Below, one piece after another: positions 1-58,419 of a stretch of DNA of 64,000 bases (positions within the stretch are counted from its first letter, which is position 1; each line of letters starts with the position of its first letter). Under the pieces are notes generated by a model, which saw nothing but the letters and a program-made list of their open reading frames with translations, was not told where the DNA came from and did not search any database. The position numbers were made by a program, and so were the translations under genes. Origin of the DNA: Minisyncoccia bacterium (GTDB taxonomy: Bacteria; Patescibacteriota; Minisyncoccia; Phycocordibacterales; UBA9973); the NCBI GenBank assembly GCA_965656375.1, contig CBFHKH010000001.1:345319-409318 (forward strand), written 5' to 3'.

Positions 1-58
1 ATGAGATCAGCCAGTTTGTAAAAGACCTGGTAGGCTAAAAATTCTGCCAAAATCAAGA

Positions 59-88
59 AAAACGAGTGCATGTGCATTCGTTTTTTAT
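59..88. terminator. GC-poor hairpin (AAAAACGAGTGCA..TGCATTCGTTTTTT) with a T-run, probably terminating a gene left of the window
   Basis: Inverted repeat plus T-run read directly from the sequence. Confidence 0.35.
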
Positions 89-114
89 TTTGGAATATCT
101 GTTAAAATGGAGAT

Positions 115-366
115 ATGACGAGAAAACAACCCTCTAAAAGTCAGATTCATACACTTCCAACAGATGTAAAGAAAGCACTCGCCTCTGTTAAAAATGCGCA
201 GGCAGTGTGGGATGATATCACTCCCCTTGCTCGCAATGAATGGATATGTTGGATTACCTCAGGAAAAAAAGAAGAGACAAGAACTATCCGTATCAAAAAA
301 GCACTTTCAAAACTTTCTAGCGGCATGCGCCGTCCATGCTGCTGGGCTGGATGTACTCATCGATAG
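115..366 (+). CDS. YdeI/OmpD-associated family protein (PF13376-like)
   Basis: 83-aa ORF with a C-terminal ARNEWICWITSGKKEETR motif typical of the family; GGAG ribosome-binding site 4 nt upstream of the ATG. Confidence 0.55.
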   Translation: MTRKQPSKSQIHTLPTDVKKALASVKNAQAVWDDITPLARNEWICWITSGKKEETRTIRIKKALSKLSSGMRRPCCWAGCTHR

Positions 367-397
367 GCGGAAAGTATTTCGCCTGCACGCACTTTTG

Positions 398-787
398 TTA
401 GTTCTCAACGATTGTCTTGAACCCACCGGAAGCAAATCGCTTCATATCAAATAGCATAGCCATAGTTGCATACTTTTTCTTGTTTTGGGGACTGTCCATT
501 TCTTTCATAACCTTCTTATTTACTTCGTCTCTATGCTTTTTAGATTTATAGACAATCCAAGAGAAAACAACTGTTTCATCTTTCGCAAGCTTTGCAAGTT
601 TTTCAAAACCTTGTCCTCCCATTCCTTTCATTTGTAAATCATCTCCAATACATTCAAAGTATTCAAGTGCTCCGTATTTCTTCCATGTCTTTGCACCCCA
701 CTGTGCCATTTTCTTATATGCTGCAACATTTTTTTTCTTAAGAGGAATTACAAATCCATCAACATATTTTTTACTATTTGTTTTCAT
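398..787 (-). CDS. DUF1428 family protein
   Basis: 129 aa; KYVDGFVIPLKKKNVAAYKKMA and the overall pattern match DUF1428. Confidence 0.55.
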   Translation of the reverse strand: MKTNSKKYVDGFVIPLKKKNVAAYKKMAQWGAKTWKKYGALEYFECIGDDLQMKGMGGQGFEKLAKLAKDETVVFSWIVYKSKKHRDEVNKKVMKEMDSPQNKKKYATMAMLFDMKRFASGGFKTIVEN

Positions 788-887
788 ATCCTATAGTATA
801 TCAAATATCATTTACACCGCTAAACCGATAGATTAATAACAATAATTATATATTGACAATCGATAAGAGATAGATTACGATAGAGAT

Positions 888-1337
888 ATGAAAAAATCCT
901 TAGTTATATTCCTTCAAAGTATTGTTGTATTAGTCGGTATCGTAGTATTAATCTTCATGTTATGGGAACCTCATATCGAAGGGAGAAATCTCCATGCTAC
1001 CCTCTTTGAAATCTACTTCAAAGATACATTTCTCATATACGCGTATTTTGCATCTATTCCTTTTTTTGTGGGACTCTACCAAACATTTAAAATTTTAAAA
1101 TTTACTAGACAGAATAAATTATTCTCATTAAAAGTCATCAAAGCGCTACGAAATATACAGTATTGTGCAGTAGCTACTATTTGTTTTGCTATAGCAGGAG
1201 AAAATATATTTATCTTATACAACAATTCTGATGATCGTGCAGGTGGAGTTTTCATGGGCTTCCTCATTTGCTTCATTTCACTGATTGTCGGACTAACAGC
1301 AGTAGGGTTTGAAAAGAAAGTTAAGAAGTCAATGTAA
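888..1337 (+). CDS. hypothetical membrane protein with 4 predicted TM helices (DUF2975-like)
   Basis: 149-aa hydrophobic ORF. Confidence 0.35.
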   Translation: MKKSLVIFLQSIVVLVGIVVLIFMLWEPHIEGRNLHATLFEIYFKDTFLIYAYFASIPFFVGLYQTFKILKFTRQNKLFSLKVIKALRNIQYCAVATICFAIAGENIFILYNNSDDRAGGVFMGFLICFISLIVGLTAVGFEKKVKKSM

Positions 1338-1368
1338 GAACCTTAACTTAATTTGATATAATGAACGC

Positions 1369-1770
1369 ATGAATAAAAATACACATTTAGTATATGTAAT
1401 TGCAGGCTTTCTCGTAGGGATTTTAATAACAATTATATTCTTCCATTATAAGAAAGTAGACACAATAGGATCAAATCCTACGGGTATCCACCAAATGCCT
1501 GATGGAACACTGATGAATGATGATGGAATGTCCATGTCATCTATGATGGATGGAATGATGGCCGGTTTAGAAGGTAAAACTGGTGACGAATTCGATAAAG
1601 CATTTCTTTCTGAAATGATTACGCATCACCAGGGAGCCGTAGAGATGGCAAAAGCTGTACTCAAAACATCAAAGCGACCTGAACTTATAAAACTCGCAAA
1701 CGATATTATTTCTGCTCAAACAAAAGAAATAGAAATGATGAAAGGTTGGCAAAAAATCTGGTTTAAATAA
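1369..1770 (+). CDS. DUF305 domain protein (metal-resistance associated)
   Basis: N-terminal TM segment; HHQGAVEMA and AQTKEIEMMKGW motifs of DUF305. Confidence 0.65.
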   Translation: MNKNTHLVYVIAGFLVGILITIIFFHYKKVDTIGSNPTGIHQMPDGTLMNDDGMSMSSMMDGMMAGLEGKTGDEFDKAFLSEMITHHQGAVEMAKAVLKTSKRPELIKLANDIISAQTKEIEMMKGWQKIWFK

Positions 1771-1803
1771 ATCAACTCTAAACACAAGATAAAGCCCTCA
1801 GAG

Positions 1804-2205
1804 TTATACTTTCTCAGTGATGCACACTTCCCCATTCGAATAACCTTCAACTACTTTGACTTCTTTATCTTCAAAGTATTCGATAGTATTTGAAGAGATT
1901 GCTTTTTCAAATAGAGTTTTTGAATATAGAGGAGGTGCTCCTTCTTTGCGAGAAATTGTTATATGAGGATATTTATTCTTTGATTTTGTGTTCTCAACGA
2001 GGAGATCATCTCCGAATTCATCATAGGCTCTCCCGATTATCTTTATACTGTGTTCTTTTCCTATCTCTACTCCATCTAAACTACTAGGTTCAAATTCGAT
2101 AGTGGAATGATGCCCAAAAATCTTCTCGTGTTTTGGAGGGAATCTTTTTAATAAATCTTCTATATTTTTTACAAATAGTCCTGTGAATTTTATCTTCTCT
2201 TGCAT
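1804..2205 (-). CDS. small 2H-phosphoesterase-like protein (LigT-like) with two H-x-T/S motifs
   Basis: GHHSTIEF and PHITIS motifs. Start placed at the ATG at 2203-2205, which lies directly downstream of an extended -10 element (TGGTATAAT); the longer alternative-start ORF in the track was rejected. Confidence 0.4.
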   Translation of the reverse strand: MQEKIKFTGLFVKNIEDLLKRFPPKHEKIFGHHSTIEFEPSSLDGVEIGKEHSIKIIGRAYDEFGDDLLVENTKSKNKYPHITISRKEGAPPLYSKTLFEKAISSNTIEYFEDKEVKVVEGYSNGEVCITEKV

Positions 2206-2223
2206 AAAAAAATTATACCATAG

Positions 2224-2247
2224 GTTCGAACTCCTAACTTTGGCAAC
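2224..2247. repeat. intergenic repeat family, copy 1 (GGTTCGAACTCCTAACTTTGGCAAC), overlapping the extended -10 promoter of the 2H-phosphoesterase-like gene
   Basis: 14-nt identity (CATAGGTTCGAACT) with the copy at 2971. Confidence 0.6.
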
Positions 2248-2280
2248 AAAAAATTGCCTTATAAATGAAGGATGAAAATT

Positions 2281-2311
2281 TTGCTCCAGACGTGGGAGGA
2301 GGTTCAGAAGA
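2281..2311. repeat. intergenic repeat family copy (TTGCTCCAGACGTGGGAGGAGGTTCAGAAGA), about 80% identical to the copy at 2673-2704; the two bracket the small membrane-protein gene
   Basis: Aligned by eye. Confidence 0.5.
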
Positions 2312-2314
2312 TTA

Positions 2315-2647
2315 TTATTTTCGAAACACGAGTATGAAGGATGATACGACAAGTGCCGCTATGCACGTGAGGAAGAGCCATGCGTTCTCGGCGCCATTGG
2401 CCCACCATGCTCCAACAATTATTACGGTTGCCCCGGCAAGAATACCAAATACTAGCTTAGGAATCTTAGATGATTGAACAGAAGTACGTACCTGGAAGAA
2501 AGAAAAAAGAATCATCCAAATACTAAACACGTAGAGCCAAGTGTCGTTACTCTCGCTACCTTTGGTTAACCATGCCGCACCTACTATGATAAGCGCACCA
2601 ATAATTGAAAAGACAATTATTCCAGATTGATTGCGTAATGAAGTCAT
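2315..2647 (-). CDS. small integral membrane protein with 3 TM segments
   Basis: 110-aa hydrophobic ORF with its own extended -10 element; bracketed by two copies of the roughly 32-bp intergenic repeat. Confidence 0.4.
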   Translation of the reverse strand: MTSLRNQSGIIVFSIIGALIIVGAAWLTKGSESNDTWLYVFSIWMILFSFFQVRTSVQSSKIPKLVFGILAGATVIIVGAWWANGAENAWLFLTCIAALVVSSFILVFRK

Positions 2648-2672
2648 GTTTTAATTCTACCATAACTATTCT

Positions 2673-2704
2673 TGGCTCCGAACTTGGGACGAGGTTCGAA
2701 GAAC
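2673..2704. repeat. intergenic repeat family copy (TTGGCTCCGAACTTGGGACGAGGTTCGAAGAAC)
   Basis: Reverse complement GTTCTTCGAACCTCGTCCCAAGTTCGGAGCC matches the consensus GTTCnAACTTCGTCCCAGACGGAAAG. Confidence 0.5.
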
Positions 2705-2727
2705 TTTATTAGATATAAGCTAGTAAT

Positions 2728-2955
2728 TTATCTTCCAATAAATAAATCAGCCACATTCTCAATTCCTGATGTTGTTGTTTTATATAGTTCTGTATAGCCA
2801 CATTGCATACAAGAAACAGTAACAAATTTATTAGTTTGGAGATTGAAGACTTTAGTCAAGAAACCTCCTGTTGTTGAAATTTTATCTAAGATATAAGTTG
2901 TATTCCCGCATTTAACACAAATGAAAGATTTCTTCTCATTAGTAGTATTCTCCAT
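2728..2955 (-). CDS. Zn-ribbon nucleic-acid-binding protein (DUF2082-like, two CxxC pairs)
   Basis: CVKCGNT...CMQCGY. ATG at 2953-2955 follows an extended -10 element (TGTTATAGT). Confidence 0.5.
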   Translation of the reverse strand: MENTTNEKKSFICVKCGNTTYILDKISTTGGFLTKVFNLQTNKFVTVSCMQCGYTELYKTTTSGIENVADLFIGR

Positions 2956-2973
2956 ATTGTAACTATAACATAG

Positions 2974-2996
2974 GTTCGAACTTGTATAAAGGTAGC
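2974..2996. repeat. intergenic repeat family copy (GGTTCGAACTTGTATAAAGGTAGC), adjacent to the extended -10 element of the Zn-ribbon gene
   Basis: See the copy at 2224. Confidence 0.6.
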
Positions 2997-3030
2997 AAAA
3001 ATATCCATTGAAAAATATGGTTAAAAGTTT

Positions 3031-3149
3031 TGCTCCTCGGGTAGGGTATCTCGGCTTACCGCCGCTGGTACTTTCTCGATTGCAAATCAATACGAGAAAG
3101 TCTTTCGATCCCTACACGAAAGCAAAGCAGTTTGCTTTCTCCGAGGAGC
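3031..3149 (-). ncRNA. E1: structured tRNA-flanked element. The terminal 9-bp helix GCUCCUCGG/CCGAGGAGC reuses the tRNA-Asn acceptor sequence, and there are two internal perfect hairpins
   Basis: Lies 50 nt 3' of tRNA-Asn. Its last 15 nt are identical to the tRNA-Asn 3' end. Homologous to E2 with compensatory helix changes. Confidence 0.45.
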
Positions 3150-3151
3150 TC

Positions 3152-3184
3152 AAAAAATCAAAGGCCACCATTTCTGGTGACCTA
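3152..3184 (-). terminator. intrinsic terminator of tRNA-Asn (AGGUCACCA-GAAA-UGGUGGCCU followed by a U-run)
   Basis: Hairpin with a GNRA loop followed by 6 U. Confidence 0.5.
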
Positions 3185-3197
3185 AGATTTTTGCGAG

Positions 3198-3269
3198 CTC
3201 CTCGGGTAGGGATCGAACCTACGACCAATCGATTAACAGTCGATTGCTCTACCGCTGAGCTACCGAGGA
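3198..3269 (-). tRNA. tRNA-Asn (anticodon GUU)
   Basis: Cloverleaf read by hand: acceptor TCCTCGG/CCGAGGA, anticodon loop CTGTTAA, T-arm GTAGG-TTCGATC-CCTAC. Confidence 0.9.
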
Positions 3270-3404
3270 ATACTGATATGTTCCCAGGAGAGATTGAACA
3301 CATTACGGTTACCTGGAAAACGAGTACAGTCTATCAAAAAACGACTCAAAATGCAAAAGAAAACCCTCCTTTAAAAAGAAGGGTTTTCTTGGGGATATTA
3401 GAGA

Positions 3405-3965: not shown

Positions 3966-4111
3966 ATGAGTATTATAGCATATAAATATACCTTTTGTCA
4001 AGTACCTGTATTCCCTCTTTAACCCTTATAAAATAAGATATAATATGAAAGTATAAATTCTCAAGCAAAAAGAGTATAATAAAAAACATTACACATAACA
4101 CGCACAAAACT

Positions 4112-8503: not shown

Positions 8504-8539
8504 ATAGAGCTATAATACCTCATTTGCTATACTAGTGGA

Positions 8540-18299: not shown

Positions 18300-20381
18300 T
18301 TAACTCTGTGAACAAGAATTATTTATTTGTGCACGAGTGAGCGGACCAACTACTCCATCTTGAGAGAGACCAAAATATTTTTGCATTACCTTTATCGCTT
18401 GATCAGTTCCACGACCAAATATTCCATCGAGAGCACCTACTTGGAATCCAAGTCTCGTCGCATGAGTTTGCAAGCGCTTCACTTGAGTCACAATTCCCTT
18501 TGTAAAAGCATTATATTTACCGTCTCTTGATCCGATCTTGAGATTTTGTGATAGACGCATGGATTCCCCGCATTCTATAGCTGTAGGAGCAGTAACTGTA
18601 ATAAGTGTAGGAGTTACTGTAGGATTTGGAGCAATTGTTGTTTCACTTTTAGTGCGACAAAATGTAGTTATCGTATCAGTACAGTAGATCACACTTGGAG
18701 AGGAAGCTTTTTGATCATTATCAACAATCGAGACTGTTACGGTACTTGTAAGATTATTGTAGTTTGGATCTGAACTTGAATCAGTAATAGAGAGCGTATC
18801 GGAGTGACCACTTTCATAGTTACTATCATCAATAGCGGTCACTGTCACAACCTGCGGAATATTCCAGTTGAGTGAAGTGAACGTAAGACTCGTCGGACTT
18901 GGAGTGATCTGCGAGCCTGAAAGAGAAACAGTAACAGTACTTGTTGGTTTGGATTTGAGAGAAATACTAAACGTATCTGTTGCTCCACCTTCAAATACAG
19001 TGAGAGAAGTTTTGGTAATTCTATTGCCAAGCACTGGTTGCATAAAATGAAGAAATACGCGTCCATGCTGATTACCGACAGGTATCGTAGCAGAATCAGT
19101 ACTTGCTCCGACACCAATATCTATCGCGCCATCATTATTAAGATCACCAAGCGAAAAGACCGTATTCCCATATCGAGCACCTGAAGGACCTGCGGTAAGA
19201 TCAGTCGGGCCATTCGGTGTTGCGCTATTTATTCGGACAGTAGATTTGAGAGAACCATCGCGGTTCATGAAGTGAATGTAGAATGCGCCAAGATTTAAAC
19301 CTGAGCTATCATCAAAAAATGATCCTACTCCTATATCTGGTATGGCATCCCCATCAATATCGGCAAGATTTGCAATTGTTACCCCATAAAAATCGCTATT
19401 GCTGAGCGTTGGTCCATTTGCAGTTGTTCCATCTATTTTTTTTGTGGATTTAATAGTGCCATCACGATTCATGAAATGAATATAGACAGCACCGCGATCG
19501 GTACCAACACTATGATCACTGATAGCTCCGACACCAATATCTTGAATGCCATCCCCATCAATATCTCCAACAACTCCTACTCCGGAACCATACGAATCAG
19601 AATCAGCGAGTGTTGCGCCGTTTGCCGTTGCTCCAGTTAATTTAACTGTGGACTTTATGGAACCATCCCGATTCATGAAATGAATGTAGGCAGCGCCGCG
19701 ATTTGTACCTCCGGTATCGTCACCATCTGCTCCGATCAAAATATCTGGTATCCCGTCTCCATCCAAATCTCCAATTCCAGAAACGGAATATGCATATACA
19801 TCAGAATCAGCGAGTGTTGCGCCGTTTGCCGTTGCTCCAGTTAATTTAACTGTGGACTTTATGGAACCATCCCGATTCATGAAATGAATGTAGGCAGCGC
19901 CGCGGTCTATACCGCCTGTATCATCCTGCTTTGCTCCTACGAGAATATCAGGTATTCCATCATTGTCGAGGTCGCCTATACCAGAAGAAGCGTATCCATA
20001 AAAATCATTTGCTAGTAGTGTCGGACCATTGGCAGTACCGTTAGCAATTTTAACTGAGGATTTCAATGTCCCATCAGAATTTAAATACGTAATGTGCACT
20101 GCTCCTGCTCTGTTTGCCCCCGTATCATCTCCATATGCACCGATAAGGATATCAGAAACTCCGTCAGCATCAAGATCACCGATTACGTTTCCACTTGCCC
20201 CATAGAAATCATTAGGTAATAAGGTCGGGCCACCTGTCATACCATTTGCGATAGGCGAAGTCGATTTAACACCTCCCAGTGTCTCAGCGAAAGCGATAGA
20301 ATTAAAAGAAGTAATTAAAATAATAGCTATGATAATAGTTTTACTCAAATAAAATTTTTTAGATGTATATGTGCTCTTCAT
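18300..20381 (-). CDS. secreted FG-GAP/VCBS-repeat protein with a C-terminal peptidoglycan-binding (PG_binding_1-like) domain
   Basis: Signal peptide; repeated GDLDGDGIPDIL..DDTGG..RGAAYIHFMNRDGSIKSTVKL units; C-terminal GALDGIFGRGTDQAIKVMQKYFGLSQDGVVGPLT. Confidence 0.7.
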   Translation of the reverse strand: MKSTYTSKKFYLSKTIIIAIILITSFNSIAFAETLGGVKSTSPIANGMTGGPTLLPNDFYGASGNVIGDLDADGVSDILIGAYGDDTGANRAGAVHITYLNSDGTLKSSVKIANGTANGPTLLANDFYGYASSGIGDLDNDGIPDILVGAKQDDTGGIDRGAAYIHFMNRDGSIKSTVKLTGATANGATLADSDVYAYSVSGIGDLDGDGIPDILIGADGDDTGGTNRGAAYIHFMNRDGSIKSTVKLTGATANGATLADSDSYGSGVGVVGDIDGDGIQDIGVGAISDHSVGTDRGAVYIHFMNRDGTIKSTKKIDGTTANGPTLSNSDFYGVTIANLADIDGDAIPDIGVGSFFDDSSGLNLGAFYIHFMNRDGSLKSTVRINSATPNGPTDLTAGPSGARYGNTVFSLGDLNNDGAIDIGVGASTDSATIPVGNQHGRVFLHFMQPVLGNRITKTSLTVFEGGATDTFSISLKSKPTSTVTVSLSGSQITPSPTSLTFTSLNWNIPQVVTVTAIDDSNYESGHSDTLSITDSSSDPNYNNLTSTVTVSIVDNDQKASSPSVIYCTDTITTFCRTKSETTIAPNPTVTPTLITVTAPTAIECGESMRLSQNLKIGSRDGKYNAFTKGIVTQVKRLQTHATRLGFQVGALDGIFGRGTDQAIKVMQKYFGLSQDGVVGPLTRAQINNSCSQS
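19598..19904. repeat. 103-nt perfect direct repeat (19598-19700 and 19802-19904; period 204 nt, 68 codons) inside the FG-GAP gene
   Basis: Identical strings read directly from the sequence. Confidence 0.85.
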
Positions 20382-20465
20382 ACTATATATGATATCAAAT
20401 GCATATTTTGTTCACAACATAAAATGAAAAACACCCTGCTTTGGACAAGGCGTCTTTCATATAAT

Positions 20466-20870
20466 GATTTGTACCTATAAGCCGAATTCTGTACTCCGAC
20501 GCAAGGTCGGAGCGATAGATATTTATCTAGGCTTCTCGTTACCAAGAGGCTCAAGCGACTCTCCCCGACTATAACGTCGGGGCACGGTCTTGCACACACG
20601 TAAGGATTTAGCTCCGACGCCCTTTCGGGGTCGGAGAGCCGACAGAATCGTCGGCTCCGTTTCACCTAAAGAGTTACCTCAATAGCTTATCCCATGGGGA
20701 TATCCTACCCTTTCGGGATTAGACGTCTCTGCTCGCACCTCTACCGTTGCCGGCGACGGGCGTTACCCGCTACGGACCCACTGACCATGCCTGCGCAGGC
20801 AGGTTGCTCAGTGATATGTGTTCGGACTTTCCTCACTCAAGTTACCTCGAGCGCATCTATCCAATACAAA
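20466..20870 (-). ncRNA. rnpB: RNase P RNA, bacterial type A
   Basis: GAGGAAAGUCCGAAC (P4), GGUAACGCC, UAGGUGAAACGG, UUGAGCC...GCCUAGAUAAAU and ACAGAAUUCGGCUUAUAGGUAC blocks are colinear with E. coli M1 RNA; own promoter TTGTCA-17-TATACT. Confidence 0.85.
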
Positions 20871-20877
20871 CCGAACT

Positions 20878-21988: not shown

Positions 21989-22182
21989 TTGTAATAAAAT
22001 AGGTTGCAATATAATGAAGAGTTAAAATAAAATATCTTTTCTTTTGTTCCGTTCTAGGGGTCTTTCCCTCCTTGTCAGATTTCTTTTAGGACAAAAATCA
22101 TTGTCCATTGTGTAGTCAATTGAGCTACACAATATCGACGCCGTAAATTTTATATTTCCGAAGAAGATATAAAACTGATTCA

Positions 22183-23717
<1,535 letters not shown>

Positions 23718-23954
23718 CTAAAAAATAGAACGGAACAAAAGAAAAAACATTTATTCCTTGCCTGCATTTTTACATGCAGACTAACTGGTGCCTCACAGTT
23801 GCACCTGGAGGACTTTCTTCACCAAACCGATTGTGATTAGCATTGGTTTGGCTAGCCTGTTTCTATAGATACTATAGTCACAGGACTTACTATGATTGCA
23901 TACCTATTCTCTTATCAAAGAAATACAGCCCAATAAGTTACCGGACTGTGGGTT

Positions 23955-28062: not shown

Positions 28063-28100
28063 AGCTATTTTGAACGCAGTATATATGTTAAAATAACTTT

Positions 28101-30249: not shown

Positions 30250-30738
30250 TTAGCATGAACGAGTCATGCATACTGGCTGACTGTATGTCATCGGATTGTA
30301 GTAGTTGCTAGAGTAATTCTGACCCTGATACCATCCTTGTGATGGAGATACTACACCGTATCCGTACCCACTGTTGTATGAACTACATGGGTTGTATCCA
30401 CATGTGCTATATACAGGATAAACATCATAGTACTGGTTACAGCCATAGTCACAGTAGTCATCATAACCACCGTATCCATATCCGTAATCATTGTAACCAT
30501 AGTTACTATAGCCACAATCATTGTAATACTGACAATCATCGTATCCATACCCATAATCGTCGTAACCGCCATACTCATCGTAGCCATATCCATTGTTATA
30601 GCCACCATTACCAAAACCAAGGCCTAAGCTTATTGAGAAATTATCCCAAAATGAAGCTTCTGACTTTGTAGGCATGACGAAAAGTCCGAGAACAAACATA
30701 CTGATAATAATTGAAAATGTTGCGATTCCTTTTTTCAT
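30250..30738 (-). CDS. secreted Tyr/Gly/Asp-rich low-complexity protein with 8 Cys
   Basis: Signal peptide MKKGIATFSIIISMFVLGLFVMPTKSEA followed by (Y/G/D/N)-rich repeats; the antisense His-rich ORFs are artefacts. Confidence 0.5.
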   Translation of the reverse strand: MKKGIATFSIIISMFVLGLFVMPTKSEASFWDNFSISLGLGFGNGGYNNGYGYDEYGGYDDYGYGYDDCQYYNDCGYSNYGYNDYGYGYGGYDDYCDYGCNQYYDVYPVYSTCGYNPCSSYNSGYGYGVVSPSQGWYQGQNYSSNYYNPMTYSQPVCMTRSC

Positions 30739-31563: not shown

Positions 31564-31637
31564 TTGGGGATCGTCTAATGGTAGGACAGCGGCCTTTGAA
31601 GCCGTTAATTGGGGTTCGAATCCCTGTCCCCAAGCCA
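31564..31637 (+). tRNA. tRNA-Gln (anticodon UUG), with CCA encoded
   Basis: Acceptor TTGGGGA/TCCCCAA, 3-bp D-stem, anticodon loop CTTTGAA, T-arm TGGGG-TTCGAAT-CCCTG. Confidence 0.85.
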
Positions 31638-31660
31638 AAAAATCACGCAGTAATTTTTGC

Positions 31661-31837
31661 TTGGGGAAGCAACTAAACTGCTTTAGTTGCGTCAGGGATT
31701 CGAAAGACTTTTCTGTCATTTGGTTACAAATGCAGAAAAGTACCTGGCTACGTGGTAGCCGAAAAGCGTACTCGCGGTCCTTGTTCTTAAAAGGTGTACT
31801 GATCCTGTAAGGATCGAAATTCCCTGTCCCCAAGCCA
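31661..31837 (+). ncRNA. E2: structured tRNA-flanked element. Begins TTGGGGA (the tRNA-Gln 5' acceptor strand) and ends CCCTGTCCCCAAGCCA (an exact copy of the tRNA-Gln 3' end); contains the hairpins GCAACUAAA-CUGC-UUUAGUUGC and CUUUUCUG...CAGAAAAG
   Basis: Lies 24 nt 3' of tRNA-Gln; colinear with E1, with compensatory changes in both helices; conserved GGGAUUCGAAAGAC linker. Confidence 0.45.
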
Positions 31838-31848
31838 ATAAAAAAACC

Positions 31849-32421: not shown

Positions 32422-32474
32422 AAAATAATTTTTCTTTTACACTACCATTTCCGCAGTATTAGTCAACAAAATAG

Positions 32475-32507
32475 TTCTAACTTCATCTCAGACGGAAAGC
32501 TCGTAAA
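32475..32507. repeat. intergenic repeat family copy GTTCTAACTTCATCTCAGACGGAAAGCTCGTAA, just upstream of the -35 element of the 190-aa gene
   Basis: Three near-identical copies in consecutive intergenic regions. Confidence 0.65.
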
Positions 32508-33363: not shown

Positions 33364-33502
33364 AACTCTAATTTTTAGAACATCTTCTGTTGATAAGGGA
33401 AGAAGATTTACCCTGTTACCATTTCTAGTCACCTATTGCGATAAATAGGAATTATTTATTACCTTCATAGTACATATATTATCAGAACTTGTCAATAATA
33501 AG

Positions 33503-33535
33503 GTTCCAACTTCGTCCCAGACGGAAAGCTCGTAA
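33503..33535. repeat. intergenic repeat family copy GTTCCAACTTCGTCCCAGACGGAAAGCTCGTAA, just upstream of the TTGACA-17-TACTAT promoter of the NADAR gene
   Basis: As above. Confidence 0.65.
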
Positions 33536-33604
33536 GTTTTTATATTTTAAAAGTAAAAACCCACCAGTGAGCGTGAGCTTCTACTAGTGGGTCGTTGAAT
33601 GTTT

Positions 33605-34231: not shown

Positions 34232-34414
34232 TTTATAATTGATTTAGTTTTGCGTGATTGCTCCAGAGAAATCAATGACTGACATCCGTAGAGCAATACA
34301 CAAAACTATCAATTCGATATCAAGGAGCTACTATAGCTATATATAATAGCATAAAATAGTTAAAAAGTCAATAGAAGTATTCCCTATGAAAAATCTGTAT
34401 GCAAACATAAAATC

Positions 34415-34444
34415 GTTCCAATTTCGTCCCAGACGGAAGGAAAG
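34415..34444. repeat. intergenic repeat family copy GTTCCAATTTCGTCCCAGACGGAAGGAAAG, upstream of the phosphodiester-glycosidase-like gene
   Basis: As above. Confidence 0.6.
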
Positions 34445-34561
34445 TTTGACAGTCGTACATTCTAATGTTATTGTTCAAGCAATCACGGTTTTTTAAATAT
34501 GTTTTAAATGTTACCAGAGTAGGTTGTTTACCTTTTTTGGTAACATTTAAAACAAAATATC

Positions 34562-39031: not shown

Positions 39032-39054
39032 GAATGTAGTATAGCAAAAATAAC

Positions 39055-52482: not shown

Positions 52483-52509
52483 ATATTGAGTATAGCACAG
52501 CCGTCAAGC

Positions 52510-56140: not shown

Positions 56141-56212
56141 GGCCTAGTCGCCAAGTGGTAAGGCAAGAGTCTGCAAAACCCTTATACGGCGGTTCGATTC
56201 CGCCCTAGGCCT
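56141..56212 (+). tRNA. tRNA-Cys (anticodon GCA), with an A-C mismatch in the anticodon stem and CCA encoded
   Basis: Acceptor GGCCTAG/CTAGGCC, anticodon loop CTGCAAA, T-loop TTCGATT. Confidence 0.7.
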
Positions 56213-56246
56213 CCACAAGGAATGTTCTTGTGATACAAACAAATAT

Positions 56247-56328
56247 GCCCGGGTGGCGGAATTGGTATACGCGCTAGTCTTAGGAACTAGTGGAGCAATC
56301 CTTGGAGGTTCAAGTCCTCTCCCGGGCA
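56247..56328 (+). tRNA. tRNA-Leu (anticodon UAG), class II
   Basis: Acceptor GCCCGGG/CCCGGGC, anticodon loop CTTAGGA, long variable arm, T-loop TTCAAGT. Confidence 0.85.
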
Positions 56329-56387
56329 CAACATAGGACAAGTCCTAATAATAGCCTACAAGCAATAGATATTGTAGACTGTTCCTT

Positions 56388-57110
56388 ATGGGTAAGTGTT
56401 ATTTATGTAATTTAGAAAAGCCATTAATCGAGGCCCATATTATTCCTAAATGGGCTTATAAATATCTATACCCTGAGGATGGAAACAAAAAATCTCTTAT
56501 TTTAGTTTCAAAAACTGCTAAGCCTATTAAAAGACCTATTGGTTCATATGATCCAAAAATTCTTTGTGCAGATTGTGATAATTTTATCGGGGTCTATGAC
56601 GGATATGCAAAAATCATATTAATAGATTCTCCTTTAGAGCAAAAAGATAAATACTCTGTAATAAAGAATGTTAACCGTATTAAATTTACTCTTTTTGTTC
56701 TATCTGTAATATGGAGGGCTTCAATTTCAAAATTGCCTGAAAATAATCGTATAAAGTTGGGCCCCTATGAAGAAAAATTGAGAGATATTTTATTATCTGC
56801 TAAAAATGGTTCTAGTAATCCTATGATAATTAATTTTCCTTTCGTGGTTACAAAATTTGCTGTAGGAAAACTTCCATCAGATGTAGTAAATAAAAACATC
56901 CAAACTCCGCATACTGAACGACTAGATGGATTAAACATGGCTGTTTTCTATATGCCAAATGGGTACAAAATATTTACCAAAACAGACAAACGACCTTTCA
57001 ATTCTGTCCTTCAAAAAATGAGTGGACATTGGCAAGAAGGATTGTTTGTATTAAATTTTATAGATTACGAGACATCGAAGGAATATAGAGATTTACTAAA
57101 AATTGTTTAG
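56388..57110 (+). CDS. HNH-nuclease-like N-terminal domain (CxxC...HIIP...CxxC) fused to an uncharacterised C-terminal domain of about 180 aa
   Basis: CYLCNLEKPLIEAHIIPK ... CADCDNFIG motifs. Confidence 0.45.
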   Translation: MGKCYLCNLEKPLIEAHIIPKWAYKYLYPEDGNKKSLILVSKTAKPIKRPIGSYDPKILCADCDNFIGVYDGYAKIILIDSPLEQKDKYSVIKNVNRIKFTLFVLSVIWRASISKLPENNRIKLGPYEEKLRDILLSAKNGSSNPMIINFPFVVTKFAVGKLPSDVVNKNIQTPHTERLDGLNMAVFYMPNGYKIFTKTDKRPFNSVLQKMSGHWQEGLFVLNFIDYETSKEYRDLLKIV

Positions 57111-57116
57111 CTTAGA

Positions 57117-57281
57117 TTATTCATGTTTTGGATAAATAACATTCCCCTCACGATCAATCAACATTCCATCTTTGATAACATACCCTTCAGCAATAAGTCG
57201 GTTATGTATCTTCTGTAAAATCTTCGCTAAACCAATGAGCCCTTGAATTGTCTCAGGTGGTAACCTTTTTTGTTTTTTCAT
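57117..57281 (-). CDS. putative 54-aa protein (MKKQKRLPPETIQGLIGLAKILQKIHNRLIAEGYVIKDGMLIDREGNVIYPKHE) immediately 3' of the XRE gene
   Basis: Translated by hand from the sequence; below the ORF-track length cut-off. Confidence 0.25.
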   Translation of the reverse strand: MKKQKRLPPETIQGLIGLAKILQKIHNRLIAEGYVIKDGMLIDREGNVIYPKHE

Positions 57282-57332
57282 ACTATTCTTTGTATTAGTA
57301 ATAACAAAGAGTGTATGAGCTATATGTAACGA

Positions 57333-57548
57333 TTACAACTCTGGATATATCTCTTCAGATTTAACCTTAAAGAGCTGAGAGAGCTTGATGAGATTAACTG
57401 CACTTGGCATAGCCTGTCCTCGTTCCCATCTACTAATCCTCTCTTCCCCTGTGAAGCCCATATGTAGAGAGACATCAGTTTGTTTGAGGTTGTGTATAGT
57501 GCGTAATTCTTTTAATTTATTTGGATACTTAAATTGAATGTTTTTCAT
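57333..57548 (-). CDS. XRE-family helix-turn-helix transcriptional regulator
   Basis: LKELRTIHNLKQTDVSLHMGFTGEERISRWERGQAMPSAVNLIKLSQLF matches a Cro/C1-type HTH. Confidence 0.7.
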   Translation of the reverse strand: MKNIQFKYPNKLKELRTIHNLKQTDVSLHMGFTGEERISRWERGQAMPSAVNLIKLSQLFKVKSEEIYPEL

Positions 57549-57696
57549 ATTAATATAGTAGCTAGGTTATAAATAAAAAATAAGAGAGGGTAAAATTCCC
57601 TATGTTGGAGGCTTGTTAGAATAATTTTTTAATTCTTCAATGCTATAAATTATTTTCTCTTGATGAGAGGGCAGTTCGTAAATCCATTCCTTTAGC

Positions 57697-57746
57697 GCAC
57701 ACATACAAAAAATGCACTCATTGAAGTGCATTTTTTGTATGTGTGC
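57697..57746. repeat. 21-bp perfect inverted repeat (GCACACATACAAAAAATGCAC-TCATTGAA-GTGCATTTTTTGTATGTGTGC) directly abutting E3
   Basis: Read directly from the sequence. Confidence 0.8.
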
Positions 57747-57870
57747 CCGGAGTTCCGACTCTACAGTCGGAACGTGAGAGAACTTGAAAACCCTGAGTAT
57801 ATCGCACGTAGTGAAACGAGTACGATACGAAGGGTGTACAGATCCTGTAAGAATCAAGATTCCTCGACCA
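57747..57870 (+). ncRNA. E3: partial third member of the E family. The 3' half GUGUAC-GAUCCUGUAAG-AUC-A-AUUCC is homologous to E2, and its termini resemble the tRNA-Leu acceptor and T-arm
   Basis: Block alignment to E2 nt 31790-31826; own hairpin GTTCCGACT-CTAC-AGTCGGAAC. Confidence 0.3.
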
Positions 57871-57945
57871 ATTTCCTTTCATTGACTTACACATTCTACA
57901 GTGGTATTGTTTTAGAAACAATCACTAAACCTAAAACAAAATATC

Positions 57946-58419
57946 ATGGCAACCAAGACAACTCCACCAACAGAAGAAGTAATTCCAATGAAAAAAACAG
58001 TTACTTCATTATTCCTATTCTGGAATGATAAGATGTTATTTATTCCATCGAAAGCAAATCACAGGCTTGTTGGACAAATAGATCCCCCATGTTGTTCTGA
58101 CTGCTTCACTTCAGAATCTGAGAGATTAGATTATGTAGTGAATAATTTCCTCCCTGAAAAATTATGCGGGAAAAACTTTCACAGTAATTTTTTATTAGGT
58201 GATACTCCAATAAAGTTTAATTATGATGATGAGTTGGGACACAAGTTATTTACAGGATATACTGCCTGGGTTAAACATGAAAAACGGAGGGAAATTCAAG
58301 CGGTAGAATTTCTTGTTGACCCCTCAGAAATGTGGGTAGACACAGTGGAAGTTAGAATGAACCCTGGTATTGTTGTAAGTCCTATGTTTAAAAAAGCCCT
58401 TGAACTACTATTCCCTTAG
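57946..58419 (+). CDS. hypothetical protein of 157 aa
   Basis: ORF with a TTGACT...TATTGT promoter-like sequence upstream. Confidence 0.4.
   Translation: MATKTTPPTEEVIPMKKTVTSLFLFWNDKMLFIPSKANHRLVGQIDPPCCSDCFTSESERLDYVVNNFLPEKLCGKNFHSNFLLGDTPIKFNYDDELGHKLFTGYTAWVKHEKRREIQAVEFLVDPSEMWVDTVEVRMNPGIVVSPMFKKALELLFP

Follow-up and report, generated by a model that had tools for sequence, protein, structure and literature searches.

The recombination site of integron cassettes, attC, is an imperfect palindrome of 57-141 nt with boxes in the order R''(RYYYAAC)-L''...L'-R'(GTTRRRY) and extrahelical bases; its structure is conserved and its sequence is not, and the attC sites of chromosomal integrons of the Vibrio cholerae repeat (VCR) type are sequence-conserved. 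Clusters of attC sites lacking integrase are known as CALINs. Islands of 10-100 kb that accrete at tRNA genes through tyrosine integrases, and the staphylococcal cassette chromosome (SCC) islands at rlmH/orfX, are inserted at the 3′ end of a conserved gene. In Neisseria, the dRS3 repeats (about 20 bp, dispersed, hundreds of copies), the non-coding arrays called Neisseria intergenic mosaic elements (NIMEs) and the minimal mobile elements, cassettes between conserved genes in a naturally transformable organism, are described. Bacteria of the Candidate Phyla Radiation (CPR), whose genomes are tiny, are commonly said to contain few mobile elements, and a literature search that included gene exchange in Patescibacteria gave no description of an integron-like arrangement of the kind reported here for this group. 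The stretch of DNA considered in this paper, further called the window, covers 64 kb of a contig from a Minisyncoccia (Paceibacteria) bacterium and contains two arrays of a short repeat, the B motif, located 3′ of tRNA genes and alternating with small accessory genes. These repeats are probably the boundary sites of small mobile gene cassettes in a co-oriented array 3′ of a tRNA gene.

The B motif has the 26-nt consensus TYCGARCnTCRTCCCARGTTCGGAGC and is conserved across many ultra-small (Paceibacteria/CPR) bacteria. A 47-bit pattern, written from three copies in a related genome (L002; L-numbers denote fetched loci) and one copy in the window, matched 82 metagenome contigs, where about 0.01 would be expected by chance according to our own estimate. 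The 2H-phosphoesterase-like (2H) proteins of L002 and the window are 78% identical. Addition of L002 and the window gave 90 distinct instances, and a profile made from these detected about 45 extra divergent copies at E <= 0.01, for 140 in total in the 528 kb fetched; some divergent copies have insertions of 20-40 nt in the central 10 nt, and one has a deletion there. The motif contains an inverted repeat, TTCGAAC/GTTCGGA, with a 7-bp stem and a conserved 10-nt loop (conserved centre TCGTCCCA). Its sequence is near-invariant over 26 nt, or 33 nt with flank, the 10-nt centre included, which points to recognition by a sequence-specific protein.

An earlier note on the window, made from its sequence alone, had described two longer repeat copies on either side of a gene for a 110-aa membrane protein. 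Both are real: the copy at 2675-2700(-) matches exactly the consensus derived independently from metagenomes, and the copy at 2283-2309(-) is a degenerate B motif (22/27 aligned positions, one 1-nt gap) located at the same place as the B copy that precedes 2H in L087. The similarity also survived a statistical scan. When the external consensus was scored over all intergenic regions of the window on both strands, the four highest scores, 47 (2648-2727), 24 (2206-2314), 22 (33364-33604) and 21 (34232-34561), against a background of at most 16, fell on the copies that the earlier note had named at 2.7, 2.3, 33.5 and 34.4 kb; the score of 24, which belongs to the degenerate copy, was reached in 6 of 200 family-wise shuffles (p about 0.03). 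There are five B or B-variant copies in the window, confined to the two arrays. Those at 32.4-34.4 kb form a tight sub-family (three matches versus 0.00 expected), and their proposed relation to the copies at 2.2-3.0 kb holds by way of intermediates found elsewhere that connect them to the main family, such as GGTTCCAACTTCGTCCCAAGTTCAAAG in L052, while within the window alone it is marginal (nhmmer E 0.5-1.5).

A strict polarity was observed directly: in loci with two or more B copies (23 non-redundant loci, 68 copies), all copies lie on one strand. The distance between copies is 219-2837 nt (median about 680), and the 53 units thus delimited contain one open reading frame (ORF) in 32 cases and two in 13, with gene calls made by a simple longest-ORF heuristic. 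Out of 80 ORFs between copies, 59 (74%) are co-oriented with B and 21 (26%) are inverted, and they belong to unrelated families (NUDIX, NYN, P-loop kinases, methyltransferases, glyoxalase, HIT, deaminase, GNAT, AviRa, DUF305). The cassettes carry their own extended -10 or -35/-10 promoters and terminators, and B mostly has a terminator on its upstream side and either a promoter or another terminator on its downstream side.

The anchoring behind tRNA genes is likewise a direct observation. Of the 36 tRNAs in the loci, 16 are tRNA-Asn, which is always located upstream of the array, on the same strand, at 0.4-3.3 kb from the first copy. Arrays 3′ of tRNA-Asn were found in 12 loci and the window, and additionally in L087, L089 and L093; in two other loci the anchors are tRNA-Arg/Val and tRNA-Glu. 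The same downstream modules are present after tRNA-Asn and after B. The TCGCAAAAATCTTAGG/terminator module that follows tRNA-Asn in the window also occurs 3′ of B motifs in L018, L031 and L026, and the type of linker that opens the first cassette recurs 3′ of B motifs in L007, L049, L046 and L081.

The junctions were analysed by comparing the flanks of 4186 pairs of B copies, using blastn with base-by-base follow-up. Pairs alike on both flanks were identical duplicates only, whereas 6 pairs were alike upstream only and 37 downstream only. The upstream identity in the six former pairs was 68/70 for L002/L055, 54/70 for L031/L053 (94% over 728 nt), 67/70 for both L032/L060 and L032/L077, and 69/70 for both L040/L045 and the second site of L066/L076, which corresponds to 77-99% overall and to 96-99% for five of them. 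All six break at the same base, directly after ...GGAGC, beyond which the similarity is random. At a seventh junction, the first site of L066/L076, the left side is a degenerate B motif in one contig and the true 3′ end of tRNA-Asn in the other, and the right sides are 69/70 identical from directly after GGGGAGC. The left partners have only these 7 nt in common, which argues against plain homologous recombination; together with the 26-nt invariance, the shared core favours site-specific recombination. No target-site duplication was seen at the seven junctions. With the usual k-mer sizes, a repeat of 26 nt is unlikely to cause chimeric assembly, although individual contigs could be affected. 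Contig ends close to B on the 3′ side numbered 9 versus 4.2 expected, which is weakly suggestive.

The content of the arrays is variable at one orthologous locus, between tRNA-Asn and the 2H gene. This interval holds a tRNA-mimic RNA and no cassettes in L093 and L094, one unit (HIT + B) in L087 and L089, a tRNA-mimic RNA with two units in the window, and four units in L002. L090 has at least 8 B copies, at least 6 of which are upstream of 2H, and no tRNA-Asn was found in the 12.4 kb examined; its 2H and DUF1428 genes each have a B-like site downstream, and a B-like site is likewise present downstream of the 2H gene in L087. For the membrane-protein gene, the earlier note had proposed to compare presence and absence of the unit between genomes. 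The orthologous locus of L002, L087, L090 and L093 does not contain the unit, which occurs elsewhere in different surroundings: homologues in L095 and L097 start right after a degenerate B-like site, with the same promoter as in the window; in the loci compared before these two were added, the cassette genes of the window had no homologues. The membrane protein has 19 homologue clusters, mainly on short contigs, and an exact-sequence look-up gave no record. The 2H-like protein that flanks the array has 150 homologues with 63-80% identity among Paceibacterota/Patescibacteria, with Candidatus Paceibacterota, Patescibacteria, Nomurabacteria and Staskawiczbacteria as named sources. The window matches a Logan contig with complete identity, and this 2H-like protein is also recorded on an NCBI contig of 840 kb. 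Compared with the related genomes L002 (4671-12069) and L093 (4072-6686), the window, at 1-3300, has the stretch that runs from tRNA-Asn across the array and 2H to DUF1428 in the opposite orientation with respect to its conserved neighbours fmt and S30AE. A diversity-generating-retroelement pair (bAvd and reverse transcriptase) is located about 2.2 kb downstream of the 2H orthologue on another Paceibacteria contig (L092 8585-10004).

Table 1 Features of the two B arrays and their flanks in the window, with putative cassettes numbered from the tRNA-Asn side
Feature	Position	Strand	Basis or remark
tRNA-Asn(GTT), array anchor	3197..3269	(-)	ARAGORN + Rfam
First junction, tRNA-Asn 3′ end ...CCCGAGGAGC	base 3197 side	(-)	
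Post-junction module: TCGCAAAAATCTTAGG, terminator hairpin (3162-3183), T-run	3151..3196	(-)	terminator scan
tRNA-mimic structured RNA	3032..3150	(-)	junction after base 3032
50-nt linker opening cassette 1; weak hairpin CCAT...ATGG + T-run	2982..3031	(-)	sequence
GTTCGAACC box, copy 2, T-arm-like	2973..2981	(-)	
Extended -10 TGTTATAGT of Zn-ribbon gene, predicted leaderless	2962..2970	(-)	6 nt to ATG
Cassette 1 gene: Zn_ribbon_13 (DUF2082), 75 aa	2728..2955	(-)	Pfam E = 4.6e-26
B motif, exact consensus TTCGAACCTCGTCCCAAGTTCGGAGC; 3′ boundary of cassette 1	2675..2700	(-)	junction after base 2675
Extended -10 TGGTAGAAT of membrane-protein gene; with CAAGAATAGTTA, start of cassette 2	2654..2662	(-)	6 nt to ATG
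Cassette 2 gene: 110-aa membrane protein	2315..2647	(-)	
Degenerate B motif TTCTGAACCTCCTCCCACGTCTGGAGC; 3′ boundary of cassette 2	2283..2309	(-)	junction after base 2283
51-nt linker with hairpin GGCAA-TTTTTTG-TTGCC (2242-2258)	2232..2282	(-)	
GTTCGAACC box, copy 1	2223..2231	(-)	
Extended -10 TGGTATAAT of 2H-like gene	2212..2220	(-)	6 nt to ATG
2H-phosphoesterase-like gene, 133 aa; conserved distal flank of array	1804..2205	(-)	weak Pfam match
tRNA-Gln, anchor of second array	31564..31637	(+)	ARAGORN + Rfam
tRNA-mimic RNA, Gln type; terminal duplicate of tRNA-Gln 3′ end CCCTGTCCCCAAGCCA (31823-31838)	31660..31838	(+)	
B-variant D5a GTTCTAACTTCATCTCAGACGGAAAGC, then TCGTAA + terminator	32474..32500	(+)	
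B-variant D5b GTTCCAACTTCGTCCCAGACGGAAAGC, then TCGTAA + terminator	33503..33529	(+)	
B-variant D5c GTTCCAATTTCGTCCCAGACGGAAGGA	34415..34441	(+)	

Among the explanations suggested by the earlier note, ends of small gene cassettes fit best, in view of the one- and two-gene units, the co-oriented arrays and the break in synteny at the 3′ end of B. In this model each unit begins right after a ...GGAGC junction, usually with a terminator-like hairpin or promoter module first. A common opening module consists of a hairpin, the GTTCGAACC box and an extended -10 driving a leaderless mRNA; the body holds one or two accessory genes, which are unrelated and may lie on either strand, and the unit ends with the 26-nt B motif (TTCGAAC-aTCgTCCCAa-GTTCGGAGC). 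The cassettes would move one unit at a time, like those of integrons or the elements that accrete in tandem at a tRNA att site. The array at 2.2-3.2 kb is anchored by tRNA-Asn and that at 31.6-34.4 kb by tRNA-Gln. The left half-sites would be interchangeable, whether a tRNA-Asn 3′ end, one of its duplicates that end tRNA-mimic RNAs, or a B motif, with the exchange taking place at or within the common GGAGC core, B acting in an attC or attP-derived role and the tRNA 3′ end in that of attI or attB. A sequence-specific recombinase encoded elsewhere in the genome and recognising the near-invariant 26-33 nt would carry out this exchange.

Several points weigh against the cassette explanation. No recombinase was found by an eyeball scan of the window, at up to 6 kb from the arrays, or in the precomputed Pfam annotation of five loci, and for this reason site-specific exchange at GGAGC can only be inferred. 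A Pfam census covered 76 cassette ORFs and 146 flanking ORFs; Phage_integrase is absent from the 25 families listed for the flanking ORFs, a list that comprises every family with at least 2 members and leaves room for a single occurrence. An excised or circular form of a cassette was not seen in these data. L048 lacks a block of 3.25 kb, containing three B copies, that L081 possesses, and this rearrangement has a B copy on one side only. The site is sequence-conserved and, with 26-33 nt, far shorter than attC, and its stem arms show no compensatory changes, the variation being too small to judge covariation. Furthermore, the loci were fetched by exact match to the motif, so its conservation is overstated, and most contigs are short metagenome pieces of unknown taxonomy.

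The arrays nevertheless appear to work like an integron or CALIN array, or like accretion at a tRNA att site, even though they depart from integrons in the defining features of attC and in having tRNA-Asn at their head in place of IntI, and from classical tRNA islands in that most repeats differ from the tRNA end and no adjacent integrase was found. The resemblance to integrons and CALINs lies in co-oriented arrays of a partly palindromic site, one small accessory gene per unit with unrelated functions, a site at the 3′ end of the unit with the crossover at its extreme 3′ edge, and an array that has a constant site of primary insertion at one end and a cassette number that varies among relatives; like CALINs, the B arrays have no adjacent integrase. 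On the other hand, the B arms TTCGAAC/GTTCGGA are only loosely R-box-like and L boxes are missing, and the anchor is the 3′ end of a tRNA gene instead of attI next to intI. The cassettes bring promoters and terminators, whereas integron cassette ORFs are promoterless and co-oriented; a quarter of the B-cassette ORFs are inverted and non-coding RNA cassettes occur. An attC-like long-range fold from B to the box was considered, and the predictions were ambiguous, local or long-range, with equal energy on both strands.

With tRNA islands and SCC the arrays have in common the insertion at the 3′ end of a conserved gene and the repeated direct-repeat att scars on one strand that delimit successive modules. 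As in tRNA islands, the tRNA is left intact with the break exactly at GGAGC, and true duplicates of a tRNA 3′ end are present in the window (3032-3050; 31823-31838) and in L066/L076. The differences are that the units measure 0.2-2.8 kb and are mostly single genes, that most boundaries are not copies of a tRNA end and share only GGAGC with it, and that no integrase gene was found at the tRNA-proximal end (attL side). A derivation of B as a copy of a tRNA 3′ end was rejected, since local alignment to the 36 locus tRNAs gave only T-loop-level matches, tRNA-Asn aligning no better than the others; B has GGAGC in common with tRNA-Asn and a loose resemblance to the tRNA-Gln end. A coding role of B was also rejected by eye, given stops upstream in all frames and an inconsistent frame. 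The Neisseria dRS3/NIME system resembles the arrays in that a short repeat with inverted termini joins reassorting intergenic modules and forms hot spots of rearrangement and integration, and the minimal mobile elements resemble them as cassettes between conserved genes; dRS3 and NIMEs are not known to have the tRNA anchoring and strict polarity of the B arrays.

The tRNA-mimic RNAs travel with the arrays and constitute a second family without a match in Rfam. They directly follow a B motif or a tRNA gene (for Asn, Gln, Val or Arg), and their 5′ strand copies the 5′ acceptor strand of the adjacent tRNA. Next come a hairpin of 9 bp, which has AACUGCUU as its loop, and a T-stem interrupted by an insert of 60-130 nt; the 3′ end has the same sequence as that of the tRNA. 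In the RNA at 3032-3150 the 5′ strand equals the tRNA-Asn 5′ acceptor strand, the hairpin loop is again AACUGCUU, the T-arm is split, and the 3′ end GATACCCTACCCGAGGAGC (3032-3050) duplicates the tRNA-Asn 3′ end. Apart from this RNA and that at 31660-31838 (+), members were recognised in L009, L018, L026, L031, L034, L038 (four), L041, L058, L066, L075 (two), L076, L079, L081 and L093. RNAalifold with nine members gave compensatory changes in 18/29 predicted pairs, and in L066/L076 the 3′ end of the homologous RNA is the synteny breakpoint. A bolder and rather tentative proposal is that the arrays represent an undescribed CPR gene-capture platform, in which tRNA 3′ ends are the primary insertion site, the 26-nt site closes the cassettes and the tRNA-mimic RNAs, with an acceptor stem that copies the anchor tRNA and a 5′ strand complementary to the GGAGC junction, help targeting; its recombinase could be unrelated to IntI, or the mechanism could be RNA-guided in a bridge-RNA-like manner.

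In the second array all three genes are antisense to the B-variants. Elsewhere in the window, at 56388-58419, a further run of small genes of unknown function with long intergenic gaps directly follows tRNA-Cys and tRNA-Leu (56141-56329); a Cys-rich HNH-like ORF and a small ORF resembling XRE-type helix-turn-helix proteins are candidates recognised by eye, and no B-like site was detected in this run.

The earlier note had treated all copies as one repeat. In fact one composite module contains two distinct elements, namely the GGTTCGAAC box and the repeat with the long hairpin. The 14-nt identical block on which that note relied, CATAGGTTCGAACT, is exact and occurs exactly twice (2219-2232 and 2969-2982), and the two box-bearing promoters have 20/22 nt in common in register (AGTTCGAACCTATGnTATAnTT). 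Both boxes in the window are located 50-51 nt downstream of a GGAGC junction, and across the loci GTTCGAACC with at most one mismatch is found 40-70 nt 3′ of B in 12/112 copies, versus about 0.7 expected. What follows the box on its 3′ side varies between an extended -10 at 5-9 nt, a -35 hexamer and something else, so the box is not a fixed promoter element. Its sequence, TAGG-AGTTCGAA-CCTA, resembles the T-arm of tRNA-Asn, GTAGG-TTCGATC-CCTAC. Two other modules were seen near junctions. One, recurrent 3′ of B or tRNA-Asn, consists of TTGACA-17-TGCTATAAT, a conserved leader ...GTAGTTCTTTGATATTTGG... and a downstream hairpin (L002 9516-9680; also L018, L026, L032, L034 and L071), and could be a small RNA or a cis-regulatory leader. 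The other consists of iteron-like direct repeats GTGAACnTTGTGAAnnTGGTGAAGG directly 3′ of some B copies (L075 5994-6030, 6676-6710 and 7176-7200; L034 276-310; L050, L057, L064 and L085).

The extended -10 elements reported for three minus-strand genes, TGGTATAAT, TGGTAGAAT and TGTTATAGT, are present, at a measured distance of 6 nt from the ATG instead of the 7-8 nt given before. The emphasis on these three promoters was misplaced because the extended -10 is the default in this genome: TGnTAnnnT is found 6 nt before the ATG of 12 window genes (for example at 1354-1362, 3972-3980, 8525-8533, 28086-28094, 39038-39046 and 52489-52497) and within 1 nt of that spacing in three more, and the start of the RNase P RNA (20462-20872) is preceded by an extended -10 at the same distance. 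The L087 orthologue of 2H also has one, AGTTGGAACgtgTGaTATAATttttttATG. The fixed distance in 12 genes implies, as far as sequence can tell, that leaderless mRNAs are general in this organism and widespread in this Paceibacteria genome. A reading of CGAACCTATGTTAT as a LexA (Cheo) box was dropped because its right half is simply the -10 element.

The rival that survives best accepts the mosaic units and gives B another function: B would be, for instance, a protein-bound insulator or punctuation element that separates a terminator from the promoter after it, or a small RNA, and would act only as portable homology, and units would be swapped by natural transformation and RecA or by microhomology joining. 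Inspection of the window by eye picks out DprA and RmuC-like genes and no integrase, B is typically flanked by a terminator upstream and a terminator or promoter downstream, its upstream flank has a -10-like profile, several other non-coding modules reassort too, and the L048/L081 indel has B on one side only. However, the left partners of L066/L076 share only GGGGAGC, too short for homologous recombination, and the break is exact; all six upstream-shared junctions end at the same base, and an insulator or a gene-transcript RNA leaves unexplained why B is strictly co-oriented with the tRNA regardless of gene strand. We consider this explanation unlikely.

It is less likely still that B is a structured RNA element on transcripts, such as a 3′-end stabiliser, a processing signal or a tiny small RNA ending at the following terminator. 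The inverted repeat would suit such a role, base pairing on the written strand survives the common variants T2C and C21T, B has the same orientation as 74% of the cassette ORFs, and a terminator-like hairpin often lies 3′ of B, as it does after tRNA. Nevertheless, B is often preceded by the terminator of the upstream gene and is thereby placed outside the mRNA of that gene, and 26% of the ORFs, including all three genes of the second array, are antisense. Moreover, compensatory covariation is lacking, the loop is as invariant as the stem, and some copies have 20-40-nt loop insertions. Searches against Rfam 15, which included B and the tRNA-mimic RNAs, gave nothing above the gathering threshold except tRNAs, 16S rRNA and RNase P RNA.

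Two other suggestions of the earlier note have very little left in their favour. That B and the box are selfish intergenic repeats spread by transposition, either repetitive extragenic palindromes (REP) or miniature inverted-repeat transposable elements (MITE), agrees with short, partly palindromic, intergenic and multi-copy elements and with an IS30-like ORF that adjoins one B copy in L022. It is largely refuted by the orientation, which is never mixed within a locus, and is further contradicted by copies that cluster behind tRNA genes instead of being dispersed, the lack of terminal inverted repeats with target duplications, and the fact that no RAYT or IS200-type gene was seen; a pattern scan of IMG/VR and blastn against phages and plasmids gave no B match. 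GTTCGAAC is a perfect 8-bp palindrome and precedes the -10 hexamer by 7 nt at two promoters, which are separated by 750 bp. We give hardly any credence to the idea that it serves as operator for a palindrome-binding transcription factor co-regulating the three genes, since the third promoter lacks it, the box in relatives is 5-17 nt from the -10, beside a -35 or far from promoters, the repeat itself lies at 0 to >60 nt from promoters, often with a terminator in between, the 2H orthologues of L090 and L093 keep the promoter without the box, the box is always the end of a 50-nt linker after a junction, orientation is strictly polar, and the downstream genes are functionally unrelated and form no coherent regulon.

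Some further observations were made in the window. A gene for a large secreted protein, a 694-aa ORF at 18300-20381, contains at 19095-20182 (-) five or six repeats of 204 nt (68 aa) in tandem, which are 61-82% identical. The product of the ORF at 30250-30738 is a small secreted protein with a high content of Gly, Tyr and Asp, encoded by degenerate 30-39-nt repeats at 30438-30606 (-). A lone 16S rRNA gene (22183-23723), with no 23S gene adjacent, is bracketed by a 27-nt inverted repeat (22030-22056 and 23726-23752, 93% complementary) that presumably forms a processing stem.

A conserved site that organises hypervariable single-gene cassettes behind tRNA-Asn would show how CPR bacteria exchange accessory functions, which would include nucleotide-modifying enzymes, resistance-like methyltransferases and membrane proteins. 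The 26-nt consensus is a simple handle for mining such cassettes from metagenomes, and the question that the B arrays pose is which enzyme recognises the site.

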